Origin: a virus
UHGV virus genome: UHGV-0097031
Strand: one strand, 5' to 3'
DNA: 10,543 nt
Shown here: piece after piece, positions 4,508 through 10,543 of the stretch
Layout: each line of letters starts with the position of its first letter
Numbering within the stretch: position 1 is the first letter of the stretch
Translations under genes and position numbers: made by a program
Notes under the pieces: generated by a model
Told to the model about the DNA's origin: nothing
The model's input: only the letters and a program-made list of their open reading frames with translations
Database searches by the model: none

Positions 4508-5545
4508 TTACCAGAGCTTCGCGGCGTACTGCGTTTGGGGGAATGTGTATCCGTAACGTTCTTCGATTGCTTTGCCGTATTTTTTACGAGCTTCATTCAG
4601 TTTTATGCCGGTCAGGTCGTCTCCAGAGGCCATCATTACGTCTAACAATTCCAGATCCATTTTATCCAGCCTTGCCATTGCTTCACGTGATGTACGTATC
4701 TTACGCTCAATGATATGGCGAATAGCCGGATCGGCATCCTCCAGCATCTTAGCGGATTTCTGCTTAAGGCTTTCATTGCGAATATCGATGTTCCTTAAGA
4801 TGTACGACTTCGCAACGTAGCTTGGCTGGTGTTTTTCCAGGTCACGAACACGATATAAGTTAAAATCGCCGAGAAGGCTGCAAGGTACCGATTCGACGCC
4901 AGAATAAATTGTAATGCTCCGGCGCTCACCAACATTATTGACAACGGGGATCGTTGTCTTCGGTAGTCTTGCGAAAACCAATGCGCCATGTGCGCCAACT
5001 CTAAAGCGAGAAAGGGCATTGCTGCCTTCGATGTTTGTTGTCAGCACAACATCTGTATATGCCTCTTTACGCGCCCGGTAGATCTCGCCTTCAGGCTCAG
5101 CTTCAAAGAAGCGCTGTTCTTCTTCAAGAGCACCTACGATTTGAGAAAAAACCCTATTTTTCAGGCTTTTCTTTATGATTTTGTCGTATTTTTTGAGCAA
5201 TTGTTCACGTGTAAATGTACGTGTTGTTGTAGCGCTTTGCACAACAACATGCGTGCTTTGATTGGTGTCCTCAATGATGAATGGGATCGGAGAATATACA
5301 GACTCAACAATGTTCGACGCTTTGCCGTCGGCATCGCGGCACATGTCAACGAAGGCTTTCCATTCAGCAAGACATTTTTCAGCTTCTTCTAATATGTTTT
5401 GGTCATGCGTTAATGCAACATGGCGGAATTCCTCGCCAGCATAACTGGTATCATGGAAAACAGAGTTTGCGACCACCAGCTCTTTCCACCGTTCAGCGGT
5501 TTGCAGGAACCGTTTGTACTCTTTCTCGATCGACTTCTTACTCAT
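4508..5545 (-). CDS. Hypothetical 345-aa protein in the immunity-region position (between pacB and lox-cre); candidate immunity repressor or accessory gene
   Basis: Longest ORF in this interval; AGGA 5 nt upstream of its ATG (minus strand); own AT-rich upstream region with paired operator-like inverted repeats; convergent with pacB and divergent from cre, as in the P1 immC region. I could not recognise any conserved domain by eye. Confidence 0.7.
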   Translation of the reverse strand: MSKKSIEKEYKRFLQTAERWKELVVANSVFHDTSYAGEEFRHVALTHDQNILEEAEKCLAEWKAFVDMCRDADGKASNIVESVYSPIPFIIEDTNQSTHVVVQSATTTRTFTREQLLKKYDKIIKKSLKNRVFSQIVGALEEEQRFFEAEPEGEIYRARKEAYTDVVLTTNIEGSNALSRFRVGAHGALVFARLPKTTIPVVNNVGERRSITIYSGVESVPCSLLGDFNLYRVRDLEKHQPSYVAKSYILRNIDIRNESLKQKSAKMLEDADPAIRHIIERKIRTSREAMARLDKMDLELLDVMMASGDDLTGIKLNEARKKYGKAIEERYGYTFPQTQYAAKLW

Positions 5546-5562
5546 TATTCCTACTCGATTTA

Positions 5563-5662
5563 GTTTTCTAACATAAAATTACTATGACAAATTTATGTCG
5601 AATAACAGAGTGAGTAAAGGATCGAACTGTGATTTTTTGTCATCAATTTTAGAAAACCAACT
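5563..5662. repeat. Pair of ~28-30 bp imperfect inverted repeats (candidate operators) in the promoter region of the 4508-5545 gene
   Basis: Left arm (plus, 5563-5591) GTTTTCTAACATAAAATTACTATGACAAA; right arm read on the minus strand (5636-5658) GGTTTTCTAAAATTGATGACAAA. Blocks GTTTTCTAA, AAAATT and ATGACAAA are identical, with two small indels; the arms flank a ~44-bp centre. Confidence 0.45.
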
Positions 5663-5754
5663 GTATAAACCACGCTTCGCAAATTAAAGACCATGAAGGC
5701 AACGTGTTACTGGTCAGAATCAATCTGTGATGGATTAAAAAAAATCGCCATTTT

Positions 5755-5788
5755 ATAACTTTAAATAATTGGCATTATTTAAAGTTAG
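5755..5788. other. lox-like recombination site (13-bp inverted arms, 8-bp spacer)
   Basis: ATAACTTTAAATA - ATTGGCAT - TATTTAAAGTTAG; the arms are inverted repeats of each other at 12 of 13 positions, and the outer ATAACTT is identical to the outer 7 bp of the loxP arms (loxP: ATAACTTCGTATA). Lies 152 bp upstream of the Cre-family gene. Confidence 0.65.
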
Positions 5789-5796
5789 GCTATAAT
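5769..5796 (+). promoter_or_regulatory. Candidate sigma70 promoter reading toward cre, overlapping the lox spacer and right arm
   Basis: -35 TTGGCA (5769-5774), 16-bp spacer, -10 TATAAT (5791-5796); a TGATCA Dam-type hexamer at 5807-5812 lies just downstream. Confidence 0.4.
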
Positions 5797-5939
5797 TATG
5801 GGTAGATGATCAGTATTGACATCACTGAAAATACGTGCCTCGAATCAAAGGCTTGAATCTTGAAAATTAACTTATAGCTACCCTGTCATTTTTATATTTT
5901 TCGCGTAGCGTCATCTGTATATAGAGGTTAAATAGTTTC

Positions 5940-6968
5940 ATGAGTGAATTAATTATCTCTGGCAGCTCCGGTGGTTTTCTGCGCAACATTGGCAAAGAGT
6001 ACCAGGAGGCCGCAGAAAACTTTATGCGGTTCATGAATGACCAGGGGGCTTACGCGCCGAATACTTTGCGCGATCTCCGGTTAGTGTTTCACTCCTGGGC
6101 GAGATGGTGTCACGCTCGCCAGCTCGCCTGGTTCCCGATCTCACCAGAGATGGCCCGCGAGTATTTTCTTCAGCTGCATGATGCTGATCTGGCTTCGACC
6201 ACCATTGATAAGCACTACGCCATGCTTAACATGCTGCTTTCGCATTGTGGCCTTCCGCCACTTTCGGATGATAAAAGTGTTTCTCTGGCTATGCGGCGCA
6301 TCCGGCGTGAAGCGGCAACTGAAAAAGGCGAACGAACAGGCCAGGCTATACCGCTGCGGTGGGACGATCTGAAACTGCTCGACGTCCTGTTGTCCAGGTC
6401 AGAACGGCTGGTGGACCTGCGCAACCGGGCTTTTCTCTTTGTTGCATACAATACGCTGATGCGTATGTCGGAAATCTCGCGTATTCGTGTAGGAGATCTG
6501 GATCAAACAGGTGACACTGTCACGCTACATATTTCACACACGAAGACAATAACGACCGCCGCCGGGCTTGATAAGGTGCTTTCCCGTCGCACTACCGCTG
6601 TGCTGAATGACTGGCTGGATGTTTCCGGGCTTCGCGAACATCCTGACGCAGTGCTGTTCCCGCCGATACACCGTAGCAATAAGGCCAGGATCACGACAAC
6701 GCCCCTTACTGCACCTGCAATGGAGAAAATATTCAGCGACGCCTGGGTGTTGCTGAATAAAAGAGATGCTACGCCAAACAAAGGAAGATACCGGACGTGG
6801 ACCGGGCATAGTGCACGCGTCGGGGCCGCTATTGATATGGCTGAAAAGCAGGTGTCTATGGTGGAGATCATGCAGGAAGGAACCTGGAAGAAACCGGAAA
6901 CACTTATGCGGTATCTTCGCCGTGGCGGCGTGTCTGTGGGGGCTAATAGCCGCCTGATGGATTCGTAA
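5940..6968 (+). CDS. cre: Cre-family tyrosine site-specific recombinase
   Basis: 342-aa ORF that aligns by eye along its whole length with P1 Cre (343 aa): SWARWC / SWAAWC, WFP, LNML, SVSLAMRRIRRE / AVSLVMRRIRKE, AYNTLMRMSEISRIRV / AYNTLLRIAEIARIRV, HTKT / RTKT, WTGHSARVGAAIDMA / WSGHSARVGAARDMA, EIMQEGTW / EIMQAGGW, MRYLR / MNYIR. All catalytic positions (Arg, Lys, His-x-x-Arg, Trp, Tyr) are conserved. Confidence 0.9.
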   Translation: MSELIISGSSGGFLRNIGKEYQEAAENFMRFMNDQGAYAPNTLRDLRLVFHSWARWCHARQLAWFPISPEMAREYFLQLHDADLASTTIDKHYAMLNMLLSHCGLPPLSDDKSVSLAMRRIRREAATEKGERTGQAIPLRWDDLKLLDVLLSRSERLVDLRNRAFLFVAYNTLMRMSEISRIRVGDLDQTGDTVTLHISHTKTITTAAGLDKVLSRRTTAVLNDWLDVSGLREHPDAVLFPPIHRSNKARITTTPLTAPAMEKIFSDAWVLLNKRDATPNKGRYRTWTGHSARVGAAIDMAEKQVSMVEIMQEGTWKKPETLMRYLRRGGVSVGANSRLMDS

Positions 6969-6971
6969 ATT

Positions 6972-6987
6972 AAATTTCTAACACATC
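6972..6987 (+). promoter_or_regulatory. Candidate operator (AAATTTCTAACACATC) between cre and the downstream accessory operon
   Basis: Same TTTCTAACA core as the motifs at 1151-1164 and 5563-5580; followed by a short inverted TTAGA (6991-6995); sits 4 nt after the cre stop and ~55 nt before the TTG start at 7042. Confidence 0.3.
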
Positions 6988-7041
6988 TTTTTAGATTAAC
7001 GCCTTTGCTGTAAAGTACCCTCGCCTATTTAGGAGGGTGCT

Positions 7042-7386
7042 TTGCAGAGTCAAATCACGGAATCAAGACGCTTCAAGGTGGATGGTTACACCGTAACCTT
7101 CGCCGCTGGTGTTAAGAACAGTCATGCTGTCGTTGTGTTCGGCATCATGACCGGGCTTGAGGCCGTCCCTGTGTTTACCCTCGAAAAAAACTGGCGAAAT
7201 CTGGAGGAAGCAGAAAGCTACGTCCGGAAAGTAACCATCATTGCCGCCGAAAAACTCCTGGCCCACTATCAGGAAAATTATCGCACTATGGTCGAGAAGA
7301 TTAATCTCGCTTTCACTCGCCCCACTACCGGCTTTATTGCACCGGATACTAATGCCGGTCGATATCCTGCAAGGGGGCGTCGGTGA
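7042..7386 (+). CDS. Hypothetical protein (TTG start)
   Basis: 114-aa ORF starting at TTG 7042, preceded by a strong AGGAGG (7031-7036) at 5-nt spacing; the first in-frame ATG would remove ~35 residues. No recognisable motifs. Confidence 0.5.
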   Translation: MQSQITESRRFKVDGYTVTFAAGVKNSHAVVVFGIMTGLEAVPVFTLEKNWRNLEEAESYVRKVTIIAAEKLLAHYQENYRTMVEKINLAFTRPTTGFIAPDTNAGRYPARGRR

Positions 7387-7859
7387 AAACTTATTACCCA
7401 TCTCTGAATTGTTACCCGTCTTCCTATCCAGAATTATCCGGGAAGCTGTTAGCTCTATTAGCTAAAGCACCTACGGAATGGTTTAAGCCAGTCGTTATCA
7501 ATCCACACTTCCTGGGTTACGGATCTGTTCGCACTCGTAACGAACTCAAAAACCTACTGGCGCATGGATTCATTCGACACCGTGCCGGGAAAGGCTATCA
7601 GTTAGCGATTGCGCCAGAAGAGGCCGTGCGGCTATTCGCATATCGTGACAGCCAGACAAAAACTCGGGTAATAGCTCAAATACTTCATAACGGCAGCACC
7701 TATGCCCGCCAGTTTGGCGGCGACACGTCGCAGTTCTTGCGGGCGGTGCGATCGCTGGAGGAGCAAGGAGTTATTGAAAGTTCCTGTCTTCCTGTTCCTA
7801 CCGTTCCACATATCAAACGTCGGGTTTACACCTTCACGCAGAGAGCTAAAAAACAATGA
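7383..7859 (+). CDS. Hypothetical protein, possibly winged-helix DNA-binding (GTG start)
   Basis: 158-aa ORF; GTG start overlaps the upstream stop (GTGA, 7383-7386) with AAGGGGG 5 nt upstream. The segment LRAVRSLEEQGVIES...KRRVYTFTQRA resembles the recognition-helix/wing pattern of winged-helix regulators (weak, by eye). Confidence 0.5.
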   Translation: MKTYYPSLNCYPSSYPELSGKLLALLAKAPTEWFKPVVINPHFLGYGSVRTRNELKNLLAHGFIRHRAGKGYQLAIAPEEAVRLFAYRDSQTKTRVIAQILHNGSTYARQFGGDTSQFLRAVRSLEEQGVIESSCLPVPTVPHIKRRVYTFTQRAKKQ

Positions 7860-8350
7860 TTTACGTAAAAGTGAAACGCCTACATCCGGCAGCAAAACTT
7901 CCAGCTTATGCCACCTCCGGATCGGCGGCGATGGATTTTGAGGCTGTTGAAATAAAACCATGCGTCGATAGCAATGGTGCAATTTCCTCAAGCTGGTGGG
8001 TGTATACCGGACTGGCTATGGAGATCCCGCCCGGCTGGTGTCTGAAACTCTATCCGCGATCAGGATTGGGCTGCAAAAAACATACTCGCCTGGCTAACTG
8101 CGTAGGAATTATCGACTCCGATTATCGCGGCGAAATCATGGCAAAACTGATTACTGATCCCGGCGGGGAAGGCGTTTGTCTCAAGCCTGGAATGGCTGTC
8201 ATGCAAGGAATTTTTGAGCGTGTTGAACAAGTCTCACTAGTCGAGGTTGAGGAACTCAACGAAACGGAGCGTGGTGCTGGTGGCTTTGGTAGCACATCGG
8301 AAGGCCACTTTGAAATTAAGCGTTCACCGCTTCAGTACGAAAAGTTATAA
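7856..8350 (+). CDS. dut: dUTP diphosphatase (trimeric dUTPase family)
   Basis: 164-aa ORF with the conserved dUTPase motifs in order: YATSGSAAMDF (motif I, variant of AGxDL), PRSGLG (II), GIIDSDYRGEI (III), AVMQGIF (IV), ERGAGGFGSTS (V). Alignable by eye with E. coli Dut; ~16-aa C-terminal extension. Start overlaps upstream stop (ATGA, 7856-7859). Confidence 0.9.
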   Translation: MIYVKVKRLHPAAKLPAYATSGSAAMDFEAVEIKPCVDSNGAISSSWWVYTGLAMEIPPGWCLKLYPRSGLGCKKHTRLANCVGIIDSDYRGEIMAKLITDPGGEGVCLKPGMAVMQGIFERVEQVSLVEVEELNETERGAGGFGSTSEGHFEIKRSPLQYEKL

Positions 8351-8364
8351 GCAGAGAAAAGACT

Positions 8365-9042
8365 ATGAATAACAAGGCAACGAAAGAGCTTTTTAAGCTC
8401 CTTCCCAAATACAAAGCTCACAAAAACGTTAGTGCATCGAAAATCAAAAATGTTGTTATTTTCGGAGTAACTGATACCCCACTTTGGGGCAGCATCGAAC
8501 TCGTTGAACCTAAAGGGGCAACAGTTTGTGTTGACGCAATGTTTTTACAAAAACACCGACCAAAAACTGGCGGGTATCTGATCGTTTATGAAAACGGTTA
8601 TCTGTTCTATGCCCCGGAGAAACCATTTGAGGAACGCTATGGCCTGGTTAACGACGCCTCCAAAAATGGAACCACGGTCATCATTACGGATGACAACGGC
8701 GCGATGATTAATCTTACCGGGAGCGTAACTATTTCTGCTGGTGGCATCACCACCCAGCAAGAAGAAATCGACCTTGAAGCAGCCGACTTTTCTGACGCGC
8801 TGATGTGGCTGAAGGATGGCAAGAAAGTTGCTCGACGCGGGTGGAACGGCGAAAACCAATTCTGCTGGCTGGTTCCTGAAGGACAGTACCCGGCACGAAT
8901 GGAAGCCATTAAGGGATATTTTCCCGGCGACCTCGTTCCGTATGGTGCTTATTTCGCCTTAAAAAATGCACAAGGTGTAGTTGTTCCGTGGGTGCCTTCA
9001 GTTGGCGACCTGCTGGCCTGTGACTGGTTTGTTGTGGAGTGA
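8365..9042 (+). CDS. Two-part protein: unknown N-terminal region (~140 aa) fused to a C-terminal DUF2829 (Tad2-family) domain
   Basis: 225-aa ORF. C-terminal ~85 aa (DFSDALMWLKDGKKVARRGWNGENQFCWLVPEG...PYGAYFALKNAQGVVVPWVPSVGDLLACDWFVVE) matches the DUF2829 pattern I recall (F-x-x-A-L-x-x-L-K-x-G-K-K-V-x-R-x-G-W-N-G ... P-W-x-x-S-x-x-D-L-L-A-x-D-W). N-terminal part unrecognised. Confidence 0.7.
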   Translation: MNNKATKELFKLLPKYKAHKNVSASKIKNVVIFGVTDTPLWGSIELVEPKGATVCVDAMFLQKHRPKTGGYLIVYENGYLFYAPEKPFEERYGLVNDASKNGTTVIITDDNGAMINLTGSVTISAGGITTQQEEIDLEAADFSDALMWLKDGKKVARRGWNGENQFCWLVPEGQYPARMEAIKGYFPGDLVPYGAYFALKNAQGVVVPWVPSVGDLLACDWFVVE

Positions 9043-9048
9043 TTTGAC

Positions 9049-9816
9049 ATGGAAAGCACTAAAACAATTCAATACCGCTTGCGTAATGGCCTGCTGGTGG
9101 CTGTTAACGCCGACATGTCACTGCCGTTTGACACGATTGAACGCACTATCATGACGTATCTCGGCTTTAATGAAGAGCTGAATGAAGAGCATGGCGTAGC
9201 TATATGGAGTGATGCAGACAGCGGCGTTCGTCGTTACATCACCGCCAGGGGCAAAGACTACTCTCTGGAAGAACTGTTTGCCCTTGCGCAGTCTTTCGAA
9301 TGTGTAGCATTAGACCTGTTTAATGATCCTGCTATAGCGCAACGACTTATACGCGAGCTTGGGCTATCCGTTACACCAATTATCTTTAAAAATGGCAGCC
9401 TGACTGGCACATGGCGCGTAGAACGCATCTCAAACTACCTTCCATATAACCGACAGTTAAATGGAGTAATCTCCGGCGTTAATCAGCCCGTAGCGTGTGA
9501 AAATGTAAACCTAGTTGTCGCTGTTTTGGCAACCGCATGTCGTGTTATCGGTTTGGCTAAACAGGCATTTATTCATTTCCCAAATGGTGCAGAAGGTAGC
9601 GCAGAGATTATCGCGTGTGATTTCGAATTTACCTGGATGCTACGCGAATATCTGGACCAAACAGTATTCCGTGCCGAAGAACTGGATATGTATATCACGT
9701 CAACGATTCCAGACGATGTGCGAGCTGAAGCAATCGCTACAGCCAGGGCGAAATGCCGTGCGGCGATTGCAGAACAGGCCAAAGAAGAAGTTAAGGAAGT
9801 GGCAGATGGCGACTAA
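9049..9816 (+). CDS. Hypothetical protein, translationally coupled to the downstream terminase-like paralog
   Basis: 255-aa ORF; its last 11 nt overlap the start of the next gene (ATG 9806, stop 9814-9816). No recognisable motifs; Ala-rich helical C-terminus. Confidence 0.6.
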   Translation: MESTKTIQYRLRNGLLVAVNADMSLPFDTIERTIMTYLGFNEELNEEHGVAIWSDADSGVRRYITARGKDYSLEELFALAQSFECVALDLFNDPAIAQRLIRELGLSVTPIIFKNGSLTGTWRVERISNYLPYNRQLNGVISGVNQPVACENVNLVVAVLATACRVIGLAKQAFIHFPNGAEGSAEIIACDFEFTWMLREYLDQTVFRAEELDMYITSTIPDDVRAEAIATARAKCRAAIAEQAKEEVKEVADGD

Positions 9817-10543
9817 GAGCAATATTTATAAAGATCCGCGCTGGCTGTCGCTGGTGGAGAAATATAAAGACAATTGGGTACTGGCAGCAAAAGAATTGTT
9901 TGATATTGATTTAAGCCACCAGCAACAACAAATTGTTGAAGCTATACAGCCCAATAATGCAAAAGCTACTGTCACCACTCCGTATGGGATCGGACGACCG
10001 CAAGTGCTTGCTGTTATTAGTACCCTTTATACGATTATGTATCCTGATTCCCGGACAGTAATTGTTTATCCAAAATCAAATGTTTGCAAAAGAGGAATTG
10101 TTGCATATGTGTGGCAATGTTGGGAGGCATTGCTGAAAAAACAACCTTTTATCATTGAGTATTTTAAGGTCGGTGATAGCGGTCTGATGTTCAATGAATT
10201 TTGGGGAATGTGCTTTTGTAACTACCGCCTTAACTATGAAGATAGCATTGCAGGTCACTACGCCGACCATCTTTTATTCATTATTGTGGATTCCGCACAT
10301 ATCAGCGATCGGGCATACAGCATTGTGTGGGCAAGCATGACTAGTGGTGATTCACGCATATTGCTCACTTCAATTCCGTCACCAGAGGAAATAGGCTTTT
10401 TTTATGATTCACATCATGGACGTGCTTTAGCTGAAGATAATCCGAGTGGTGTATATAAAGCCATTAAGCTGAGTGCGGAGGATTCACCATTTATTACCCA
10501 AGAATATCTTGATCATTTTGCCGAAAGGTATGGCGGGCGAAAT
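9806..10543 (+). CDS. Terminase large subunit (PacB) paralog with degenerate Walker A and B motifs; 3' end beyond window
   Basis: Partial ORF (246 codons, runs off the window end). Colinear with PacB 2993-4480: DPRW, SHQQQQI, YPDSRTVIV / FPDARVIIV, HLLFIIVDSAHISD / HLLLILDEASGISD, FYDSHH, DNP, SAEDSPFIT / SEESPFVT, ERYGGR / EYGGR. The P-loop position reads TTPYGIGRPQ instead of TSGHGTGKSS (Lys to Arg, Ser to Pro), and Walker B is VDSA instead of LDEAS (Glu lost). Confidence 0.75.
   Translation, partial: MATKSNIYKDPRWLSLVEKYKDNWVLAAKELFDIDLSHQQQQIVEAIQPNNAKATVTTPYGIGRPQVLAVISTLYTIMYPDSRTVIVYPKSNVCKRGIVAYVWQCWEALLKKQPFIIEYFKVGDSGLMFNEFWGMCFCNYRLNYEDSIAGHYADHLLFIIVDSAHISDRAYSIVWASMTSGDSRILLTSIPSPEEIGFFYDSHHGRALAEDNPSGVYKAIKLSAEDSPFITQEYLDHFAERYGGRN

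Follow-up and report, generated by a model that had tools for sequence, protein, structure and literature searches.

A Dec-type OB fold, a short stalk and a Tad2 domain in one gene of a D6-like phage-plasmid: a candidate two-module counter-defense protein

What is the role of a folded module of about 135 residues that precedes a Tad2 domain, a domain that stands alone in solved relatives such as ModTad2, SPO1 Tad2 and HgmTad2? This question is raised by a gene at positions 8365..9042 of the UHGV virus genome UHGV-0097031, a stretch of 10,543 nucleotides (nt) that is referred to below, at its full length, as the window. The window comes from a D6-like phage-plasmid of the P1 family; within the stretch searched, 7000-10543 is 100% identical to the E. 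coli plasmid pTB423, a non-mobilisable plasmid of 91.8 kb, and 98% identical to Escherichia phage D6. The gene is a complete coding sequence of 225 amino acids (aa) and a stop codon, with the N-terminus MNNKATKELFKLLPKYKAHKNVSASKIKNVVIFGVTD in the list of open reading frames (ORFs), and it starts 14 nt past the stop codon of the co-oriented dUTPase gene, dut, both as described in an initial annotation that was made from the letters alone. RefSeq lists the protein as WP_121841009.1, a 'DUF2829 domain-containing protein' on pTB423, and its full length matches phrog_872 (E 1.9e-57).

By sequence comparison, the architecture of the protein is a Dec-type OB fold, followed by a short stalk and a Tad2 domain. 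The reading that we favor, with a probability of roughly 0.6, is that of a two-module counter-defense protein, in which a ModTad2-type sponge for immune signals is combined with an accessory N-terminal adaptor. The C-terminal 85 residues would form a ModTad2-type tetramer with inter-subunit pockets, and these pockets would sequester ADP-ribose (ADPR)-derived signals of Toll/interleukin-1 receptor (TIR) proteins. As ModTad2 is the closest solved relative, our best guess for the ligand is histidine-ADPR (His-ADPR) of type II Thoeris, while a second pocket, formed by a variable insertion, could take up cyclic mono- or dinucleotides. Sequestration would keep the Thoeris or Pycsar effector of the host inactive and would thereby protect lytic growth, and perhaps establishment, of the phage-plasmid in Thoeris- or Pycsar-carrying hosts. 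The N-terminal ~135 residues would act as an adaptor that sets the oligomeric state, valency, stability or location (anchoring) of the sponge. The tetramer and the sequestration are proposed by analogy with solved Tad2 proteins, and for the sequestration step we rely on homology, conserved pocket residues and strict purifying selection.

The Tad2 domain and its ligand pocket

The initial annotation had assigned the C-terminal third of the protein to DUF2829, and this assignment stands far beyond chance. Residues 141-224 match the Pfam profile PF11195, 'Tad2-like', over profile positions 2-73 of 73 with an E-value of 1.9e-22 and a score of 80 bits, the cut-off being 25, and the 225-aa protein can thus be placed in the Tad2 family by its sequence. 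The best solved relatives are the ModTad2 structures 9EIB and 8V3E (E ~5e-20, 46% identity; 6.6e-21 for 9eib with phmmer), followed by HgmTad2/AcrIIA7, SPO1 Tad2 and SptTad2. ModTad2, of a clade of His-ADPR and cUMP binders that also includes TmoTad2 and CcaTad2, scores 77 bits, compared with 41-48 for SPO1 and Hgm, which is a ranking by match score. In an AlphaFold monomer model built on 34 homologues, the Tad2 part (141-225) mostly shows pLDDT values (from the predicted local distance difference test) of 84-92, falling to 50-70 in an insertion at 170-190. The model shows the fold of the family, an N-terminal helix and an antiparallel sheet with an insertion. With Foldseek it recovered all of the solved Tad2 structures, and 9eib, 8v3e, 8sme and 8kbj gave E-values of 7e-9 to 5e-5 and target-normalized TM-scores of 0.75-0.87.

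In the published structures, glycocyclic ADPR (gcADPR) is held by W25, N26, W73, S76, T78 and D79 of SPO1 Tad2, and the ligand contacts of HgmTad2 are W21, N22, G23, W87, S90, T92 and D93. These pocket residues align to W160, N161, G162, W209, S212, G214 and D215 in the window protein. In our alignment of 34 full-length relatives (alignment A1), W160, W209, P211, S212 and D215 are invariant. The sole change in the pocket concerns the adenine-contacting Thr of SPO1 Tad2 and HgmTad2, which is replaced by Gly214 here and by Ser in ModTad2. When the Tad2 domain is compared with its homologue in the P1-like phage SJ46, no non-synonymous change is found in 90 codons (non-synonymous divergence, dN = 0; synonymous divergence, dS = 0.16). 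The domain is under strict purifying selection and, judged by its residues, looks functional.

The insertion between the core strands corresponds to a region that forms, in HgmTad2 and MoTad2, a second pocket for cyclic di- or mononucleotides. In the window protein this insertion is of the short, ModTad2-like type, while P1/D6-type relatives carry at least four alternative insertion cassettes between near-identical flanks in alignment A1, a pattern that would fit diversification of the second specificity pocket. In a subset of the P1/D6-type relatives, the pocket loop reads W-K (ARREWKGEKQFC) instead of W-N and the insertion cassette is shorter and of another kind, which suggests an allelic series with differing ligand specificities.

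The likeness to ModTad2 (also MoTad2, from a Myroides odoratus prophage) extends over the whole 88-aa domain and includes the fold, the length and type of the insertion, and the W-N-G and W-x-P-S-x-x-D pocket motifs. Type I Thoeris is not blocked by ModTad2. What this protein sequesters is His-ADPR, the signal of type II Thoeris, and the second pocket made by its insertion takes the Pycsar signals cUMP and cCMP. It is, however, a stand-alone protein of 89 aa that lacks the 135 extra N-terminal residues of the window protein, and it differs at the adenine-contact position, as noted above. SPO1 Tad2 (gp34.65; 8SME-G) and HgmTad2/AcrIIA7 (8KBI-M) belong to the same family (E 1e-9 to 1e-11) and share the ligand contacts, but show 32-36% identity, have T78/T92 where the window protein has Gly, differ in the insertion (that of Hgm is twice as long and binds cGG) and are both single-domain proteins.

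The pocket also bears on the proposal that the Tad2-like domain serves as something other than a sponge, namely as an anti-CRISPR or in housekeeping binding of nucleotides (c-di-GMP) for the plasmid. AcrIIA7/HgmTad2 is a DUF2829 protein that entered the literature as an anti-CRISPR and whose affinity for c-di-GMP is picomolar, and the apparent co-transcription of our gene with cre, described below, could mean expression in the plasmid (lysogenic) state. We nonetheless regard such a role as quite improbable: Li et al. could not reproduce any anti-Cas9 activity of Tad2 proteins, the residues that are conserved belong to the ADPR pocket, and the insertion, from which a dinucleotide pocket would be made, is a short one like that of ModTad2.

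The N-terminal module, its fold and its alleles

The initial annotation had called the N-terminal region unknown, which is correct as far as annotated families are concerned, since residues 1-135 gave no match in Pfam, NCBIfam or PADLOC, and none to the sponge models of Pfam, annotated PHROGs or PADLOC. Profile searches nevertheless revealed relatives, with the fold of the capsid-binding OB domain of Dec, the decoration protein of phage L (6E3C). The region is a separate folded module and not a disordered extension: AlphaFold models it at a pLDDT of ~90, and phrog_11049 covers residues 11-98, marking it as a separable unit. With phmmer, the similarity to Dec is weak (E 0.006-0.011); the full-length profile reaches Dec at 5.3e-6 and the N-domain profile at 1.5e-6, the latter over Dec 13-91, that is, the whole OB fold and the helix that follows. 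A fold search of BFVD returned only uncharacterized phage proteins, and a word-indexed search with the N-terminal 135 aa returned only close relatives, an exhaustive profile search being needed for this region. Lockin and Acb5 of Tal et al. were also considered as identities of the N-domain and were set aside, since the text consulted gave no support for either.

The OB fold of Dec is homologous from end to end, and in both proteins a helix and a stalk-like I.LTG.VT.SA unit come next. The stalk of the window protein (NGTTVIITDDNGAMINLTGSVTISAGGITT) aligns with the start of the trimeric beta-helix of Dec (TITLTGAVTGSAS). It comprises ~27 beta-rich residues with one such Dec-like unit, modeled as four short strands with a pLDDT of ~55 in the monomer, and is followed by Tad2, whereas Dec ends in a trimeric beta-helix of ~45 aa. 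Among the relatives in alignment A1 the stalk is hypervariable, swapped for a helical linker or absent. Identity to Dec is ~30%, and Dec is without most of the signature of the OB family described below (CHK, YEDGY, SYSP). K30 and Y49, which were mapped by experiment as contacts of Dec with the capsid, correspond to V31 and C55 and are thus not conserved, an observation of limited weight as the coat protein would differ. The window gene, moreover, does not lie in a late or structural context; it lies in an accessory string that includes cre and dut, and its SJ46 counterpart lies in a C1-controlled ssb operon. As neither the contact residues nor the gene context fit, the 225-aa protein should not be classed with the decoration proteins.

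Nature provides an allele of this gene in which the OB fold is removed. In phage D6, orf114 is the same gene minus 237 bp, lost in frame (window 8425..8661, codons 21-99), and in the DNA alignment of the window with D6 the deletion is bounded by an AAAAA microhomology. What is lost is exactly the OB fold, while residues 1-20, the stalk and the Tad2 domain are retained. The common allele is the full-length one, with 389 member sequences in its 90%-identity cluster, and it dominates the match list. Relative to SJ46, the OB fold and the stalk show a dN/dS ratio (omega) of ~0.5. Because dS is lower in the Tad2 part (0.16) than in the N-terminal parts (0.53-0.72), the comparison shows a mosaic gene, with a probable junction at the conserved EEIDLEAADF boundary.

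Other relatives display further rearrangements. The conserved EIDLEAADFSDALMWLK boundary resembles a recombination junction. One relative (P0056; 241 aa, 15 members) is an in-frame dUTPase-Tad2 fusion that apparently arose by deletion, in another (P0002) an N-terminus of tail-fiber repeats (PF03406) is spliced onto the OB domain, and in a third (P0029) the end of the OB fold is missing. P0062, P0071 and P0097 carry both Tad2 and Sequestin, and P0097 has four modules, consisting of OB, an extra domain, Tad2 and Sequestin.

Such truncations and odd fusions, the D6 deletion among them, could be taken to mean that the N-terminal part is a functionless left-over of module shuffling and that the Tad2 domain alone matters; the mosaic dS values and the loss of family signature residues from the window copy (see below) point in the same direction. 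The reading frame is, however, intact, the fold is predicted with confidence, omega is 0.5 rather than ~1, and it is the full-length form that is common. We thus judge it highly improbable that the module has no function.

Relatives of the OB fold and the role of the module

To place the N-terminal module, we searched 1.84 billion representative proteins exhaustively with a hidden Markov model (HMM) of the N-domain. At a threshold of E <= 1e-3 the search yielded 4,499 proteins, and at E <= 1e-10 it yielded 1,823. The signature of the family is lP.Y.CHK.V.A.KI...kH.P..GGY.V.Y.DGY.SYSPa.AFE.GY. Some giant top matches (P0128, P0130 and P0136; 2,182-4,559 aa) were discarded, as they consist of cadherin/VCBS-like repeats and cover half of the profile only. 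Their repeats (…GGTIIIAADGSYSYTPAANF…) mimic the beta4-beta5 hairpin motif and are a false-positive trap for any census of the family. Among the top 143 representatives the median length is ~150 aa, and 62 of them, at 130 aa or less, are stand-alone OB proteins. Against an HMM of these 143 sequences, the window protein scores 82.8 bits and Dec 29 bits. The signature is kept equally well in sponge-fused, stand-alone and other OB members. In the window copy, 5 of its ~20 residues are replaced (C18A, D77N, S81F, S83A and G91R).

A Pfam scan of the 143 representatives found only four recurrent partner families, all of them immune-signal sponges: Sequestin (PF21825) in 13 members, Tad2 (PF11195) in 12, Acb4 (PF13876) in 4 and the Acb2/Tad1 hairpin (PF24729) in 2, the identities of PF21825 and PF13876 being those of Tal et al. 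2025. Without exception, the fusions have the OB domain at the N-terminus and one or more sponges at the C-terminus. One early locus of Klebsiella Lastavirus phages, which lies just after a repressor/cro-like switch, encodes OB and Tad2 in SopranoGao (gp55), OB and Sequestin in ZX1, and OB, an unassigned stretch of ~130 residues and Sequestin in LASTA (gp52). This locus is a natural case of sponge-cassette swapping on a constant N-terminal module. Fusions are also found in Caulobacter phage Jess A (OB and Acb2/Tad1 hairpin, before the DNA polymerase gene) and Burkholderia phage BCSR129 (OB and Sequestin). In Pantoea phage PdC23 and Ralstonia phage GP4, stand-alone members are neighbors of the gene for the major capsid protein, and others lie in the late regions of Bas106 and AttikonH5.

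RyR Tad, gp68 of Pectobacterium phage CB1 (L017:4143-4694), adds a fifth sponge family. Its N-domain scores 29 bits against the family HMM, in two pieces, and shares the motifs L.QYQSHK.V.A and P..EGYLVVY...SWSP..F.AG, with the central beta2-beta3 meander missing. Like the window protein, RyR Tad has an OB-family N-domain followed by a C-terminal sponge for an ADPR signal; unlike it, the sponge is RyR-Repeat12-like and not Tad2. The N-domain alone has no activity against type I Thoeris, for which the C-terminal domain is sufficient, and in the crystal it forms a domain-swapped dimer and so contributes to dimerization (bioRxiv 10.64898/2026.06.04.730250). The accessible part of that paper's text does not mention the link to OB folds or Dec and refers to an N-terminal fold 'of unknown function'. 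Relative to the literature found, the sequence-based union of the RyR-Tad N-domain, the Dec fold and the N-domains of the Tad2, Sequestin, Acb4 and Acb2-hairpin fusions in one family appears to be new, as do the very large size of this family and the OB-deletion allele of D6.

The statement of the initial annotation that DUF2829 proteins are typically single-domain holds only in part, as Tad2 fusions to Acb4, Sequestin and a 6E3C/Dec-like domain are already found in the literature. The last class is recorded by Hadary et al., who mention 6E3C-containing Tad2 proteins in their Methods. Acb4-Tad2 of Pasteurella phage Pm86, Tad2-Sequestin and Acb4-Sequestin (Tal et al. 2025; Ab09 gp59) resemble the window protein in joining Tad2 or another sponge to a small phage module. 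In those sponge-sponge fusions both partners are proven sponges, whereas the N-domain of the window protein matches no sponge model.

The initial annotation had also suggested that the N-terminal region may add a second activity or ligand specificity. In this form, the protein would have a dual activity, with the OB domain itself being a signal-binding sponge or a small signal-degrading enzyme, and two immune signals would be neutralized, in the manner of the Acb4-Tad2 and Tad2-Sequestin fusions. Guilt by fusion, the logic behind the discovery of Sequestin, is in favor of this proposal, as the OB domain is joined to five independent sponge families and to no other recurrent partner. The family is huge, consists mostly of short stand-alone phage proteins and keeps the same polar and aromatic signature with or without a sponge, and matches to Dec in HHpred-type searches would probably have filtered it from published pipelines. 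The data for the window protein itself speak against it, however. Its copy has lost the five signature residues listed above, its OB part evolves at an omega of ~0.5 and is lost in frame from D6, the RyR-Tad N-domain is inactive on its own, and some OB members sit in structural modules. The suggestion of a second activity is thus not borne out for this protein, and we consider it rather unlikely.

The homology to Dec raises a further alternative, that of a capsid-tethered sponge or decoration protein, in which the OB domain sits on the head at quasi-threefold sites with the stalk pointing outward and Tad2 displayed. The protein would in that case be part of the virion or of an assembly intermediate. 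The sponge might thereby be placed where capsid-triggered signaling begins, or Tad2 oligomerization might cement the shell. The OB domain of Dec is its mapped capsid binder and has its C-terminus outward, which agrees with the N-terminal OB and C-terminal cargo of every fusion, and the stand-alone members of PdC23, GP4, Bas106 and AttikonH5 have the structural or late positions described above. In P1, the capsid consists of an I-domain coat protein without cement proteins, which would leave the sites free, and capsid proteins have been reported as triggers of type I Thoeris. On the other side, the fused forms are early or accessory genes (the SJ46 ssb operon with its C1 operator, the early-right operon of Lastavirus, and Jess A), and V31 and C55 stand in place of the Dec contacts K30 and Y49. 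Phage D6 is viable although its allele has no OB fold, P1 lacks the gene altogether, the stalk is swapped for a helical linker or absent in relatives, and a protein that sits outside the head of a tailed phage stays out of the next host. Taken together, we regard tethering to the capsid as unlikely.

A broader proposal concerns the family rather than this copy. The OB domain could be a widespread, dedicated anti-defense module attached N-terminally to at least five unrelated sponge families, which we regard as possible and hold tentatively. It has two versions. The OB domain may tether sponges to the capsid or assembly site, the place at which many signaling systems are triggered, and would then echo the capsid-anchored Dar proteins of P1, or it may itself represent a new family that binds or cleaves signals, as the invariant C-H-K, K-H-P, Y-DGY and SYSP motifs hint. 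If the proposal is true, Dec of phage L would be a diverged, capsid-specialized offshoot of a counter-defense family.

For the window protein, we return to the favored combination of a ModTad2-type sponge and an accessory adaptor. Given the D6 allele without OB fold and the precedent of the inactive RyR-Tad N-domain, the OB domain is most likely dispensable for the core sponge function. Several points weigh against this combination and need to be considered. The Gly214 that replaces the adenine-reading Thr means that the ligand specificity cannot be read from the pocket. The conserved polar and aromatic residues of the OB family (C-H-K, K-H-P, Y-DGY, SYSP and FE-GY) suggest a specific binding or catalytic site, as a scaffold alone would not need such conservation. 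The RyR-Tad N-domain is a shortened version without the meander, and it may be doubtful whether its inactivity can be transferred to the window protein. A stalk that is trimeric, as in Dec, would have a symmetry at odds with that of a Tad2 tetramer. Moreover, roughly a quarter of sponge homologues assayed by others inhibited none of the tested systems, and Hadary et al. removed 6E3C-containing Tad2 proteins from their 84-protein screen.

Gene neighborhood and biological meaning

The features of the gene and its surroundings are summarized in Table 1. From the cre-like gene onward, the string of the cre-like gene, two ORFs, dut, the Tad2 gene, the isaA-like gene and the PacB paralog consists of ORFs that overlap or abut. 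The only good sigma-70-like promoter upstream of this string, which is a consensus match only (TTGGCA-16-TATAAT, 11 of 12 matches), lies before the cre-like gene, and the + strand showed no terminator-like site within 5500-10543; a single operon is therefore plausible. The two ORFs between the cre-like gene and dut gave nothing in NCBIfam or PADLOC, nor above threshold in Pfam, and PADLOC and NCBIfam likewise gave nothing for the Tad2 gene or its neighbors.

Table 1. Features of the Tad2 gene and of its neighborhood in the window.
Feature	Positions	Strand	Remarks
Tad2-like protein, 191 aa	164-739	+	
Unknown ORF, lpa, pacA, pacB, in that order			Between the 164-739 gene and the repressor gene
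Distant C1-type repressor ORF, 345 aa	4508-5545	-	Between pacB and the cre-like gene
Sigma-70-like promoter	5769..5796	+	
Cre-like recombinase	5940-6968		
ORFs phrog_1968 and phrog_6669	7042-7386, 7383-7859	+	Between cre-like gene and dut; start/stop codons overlap
dut (dUTPase)	7856..8350	+	Pfam PF00692 E 1.7e-14; phrog_135 E 5e-62
Dec-type OB fold, beta stalk and Tad2 domain gene	8365..9042	+	
OB-fold domain, residues 13-95	8401..8649	+	Homologous to capsid-binding domain of phage L Dec
Beta-rich spacer (stalk), residues 99-135	8659..8769	+	phmmer alignment to Dec 54-122
Tad2/DUF2829 domain, residues 141-224	8785..9036	+	Closest solved: ModTad2 (PDB 9EIB)
W160-N161-G162, beta1-beta2 loop of predicted ADPR/gcADPR pocket	8842..8850	+	Aligned to SPO1 W25-N26 and HgmTad2 W21-N22-G23
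Insertion between core strands, residues 170-195	8872..8949	+	Alignment A1, columns 201-250
W209-V-P-S212-V-G214-D215, second half of predicted pocket	8989..9009	+	Aligned to SPO1 W73/S76/T78/D79 and HgmTad2 W87/S90/T92/D93
IsaA-like protein, 255 aa	9049..9816	+	6-nt gap after Tad2 gene; 48% identity to P1 IsaA, E 3e-89
PacB paralog, running off the window	9806-10543	+	Overlaps stop of isaA-like gene

Regarding regulation, the similarity of the ORF before the cre-like gene to the P1 C1 repressor model of NCBIfam is weak (E 8.9e-6; 25 bits, with the cut-off at 500), and the P1 C1 operator has no match anywhere in the window, a count that is not informative by itself. Together, the weak match and the lack of a P1-type operator in the window make it seem that D6-type immunity uses a diverged repressor and operator. 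A search of the window for Lpa-type late promoters was likewise not informative, with 1 match against 1.2 expected by chance and a pattern taken from a single P1 example.

Comparison with other elements places the gene in more than one setting. In the P1-like phages SJ46 and RCS47, the homologous gene follows ssb and not dut, and P1-type elements have the Tad2 gene and isaA together after ssb, next to the hxr-ddrB region of the opposite strand. In SJ46, the ssb operon lies behind an exact P1 C1 operator, and early expression of the homologue is therefore predicted. The isaA-like gene accompanies the Tad2 gene in both D6-like and P1-like (SJ46) elements, while P1 itself (NC_005856, 19000-25000) has no Tad2 fusion gene and carries isaA directly after ssb. 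Publications on P1 virions are for this reason uninformative about the gene. P1 IsaA has 320 aa, with ~59 extra N-terminal residues relative to the IsaA-like protein of the window. The idea that P1 IsaA and IsaB are remnants of a Tad2 gene split by IS1 was rejected, as IsaA matches the downstream 255-aa gene and IsaB matches neither. On these gene orders, adjacency to dut appears to be specific to D6-type elements. Of the setting in an accessory operon next to a nucleotide-metabolism gene that was seen in the initial annotation, the accessory neighborhood thus stands, whereas the link to dUTPase is lineage-specific.

The last gene of the string within the window encodes a paralog of PacB, which is 364 aa long in full (L005:11807-12901) and 37% identical to PacB over a 258-aa ATPase domain (E 7e-63). 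Its Walker A motif is destroyed (GHGTGKSS to PYGIGRPQ), its Walker B motif has degenerated (LLILDEAS to LFIIVDSA) and it lacks the nuclease half; the protein could be a decoy or a regulator. In phage D6, this position is taken by pdcA-doc-phd instead. At the other end of the window, upstream of lpa, lies a second Tad2-like protein (phrog_7362), which matches PF11195 at residues 103-190 (E 1.1e-9), has an N-terminal region of its own of ~100 aa, and carries the pocket motifs W-P-K rather than W-N-G and W..T..D rather than W..S..D. The element thus appears, from these profile matches, to carry two different Tad2-type genes. The surroundings as a whole, including dut, the ruined PacB paralog and the second Tad2-like gene near lpa, are consistent with an accessory or counter-defense region.

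In a survey of such elements by automated annotation, 'Tad2 AcrIIA7 (anti-Thoeris)' was reported for 93% of the D6-like and 56% of the P1-like ones (bioRxiv 10.1101/2025.09.12.675607). These calls probably include the present gene family, although D6-like elements carry two Tad2-like genes and the one that was scored is unspecified. The survey gives presence only, and the N-terminal domain, the alleles and the function are not described in it.

Signal sponges are one of the main means by which phages disarm Thoeris, Pycsar and the cyclic-oligonucleotide-based antiphage signaling system (CBASS), and pathogenic E. coli, Shigella and Salmonella commonly carry phage-plasmids of the P1/D6 type. The gene described here represents the class of Dec-like and Tad2 fusions that a published functional screen explicitly excluded, and the D6 allele offers a natural control for it, being the same gene with only the OB fold removed. 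That a single OB-fold family precedes Tad2, Sequestin, Acb4, the Acb2/Tad1 hairpin and RyR-Tad, and has thousands of stand-alone relatives, is a testable lead. The family may be a new counter-defense family or a general device for oligomerizing or localizing sponges, and it may show that the fold of a decoration protein has a second life in immune evasion.

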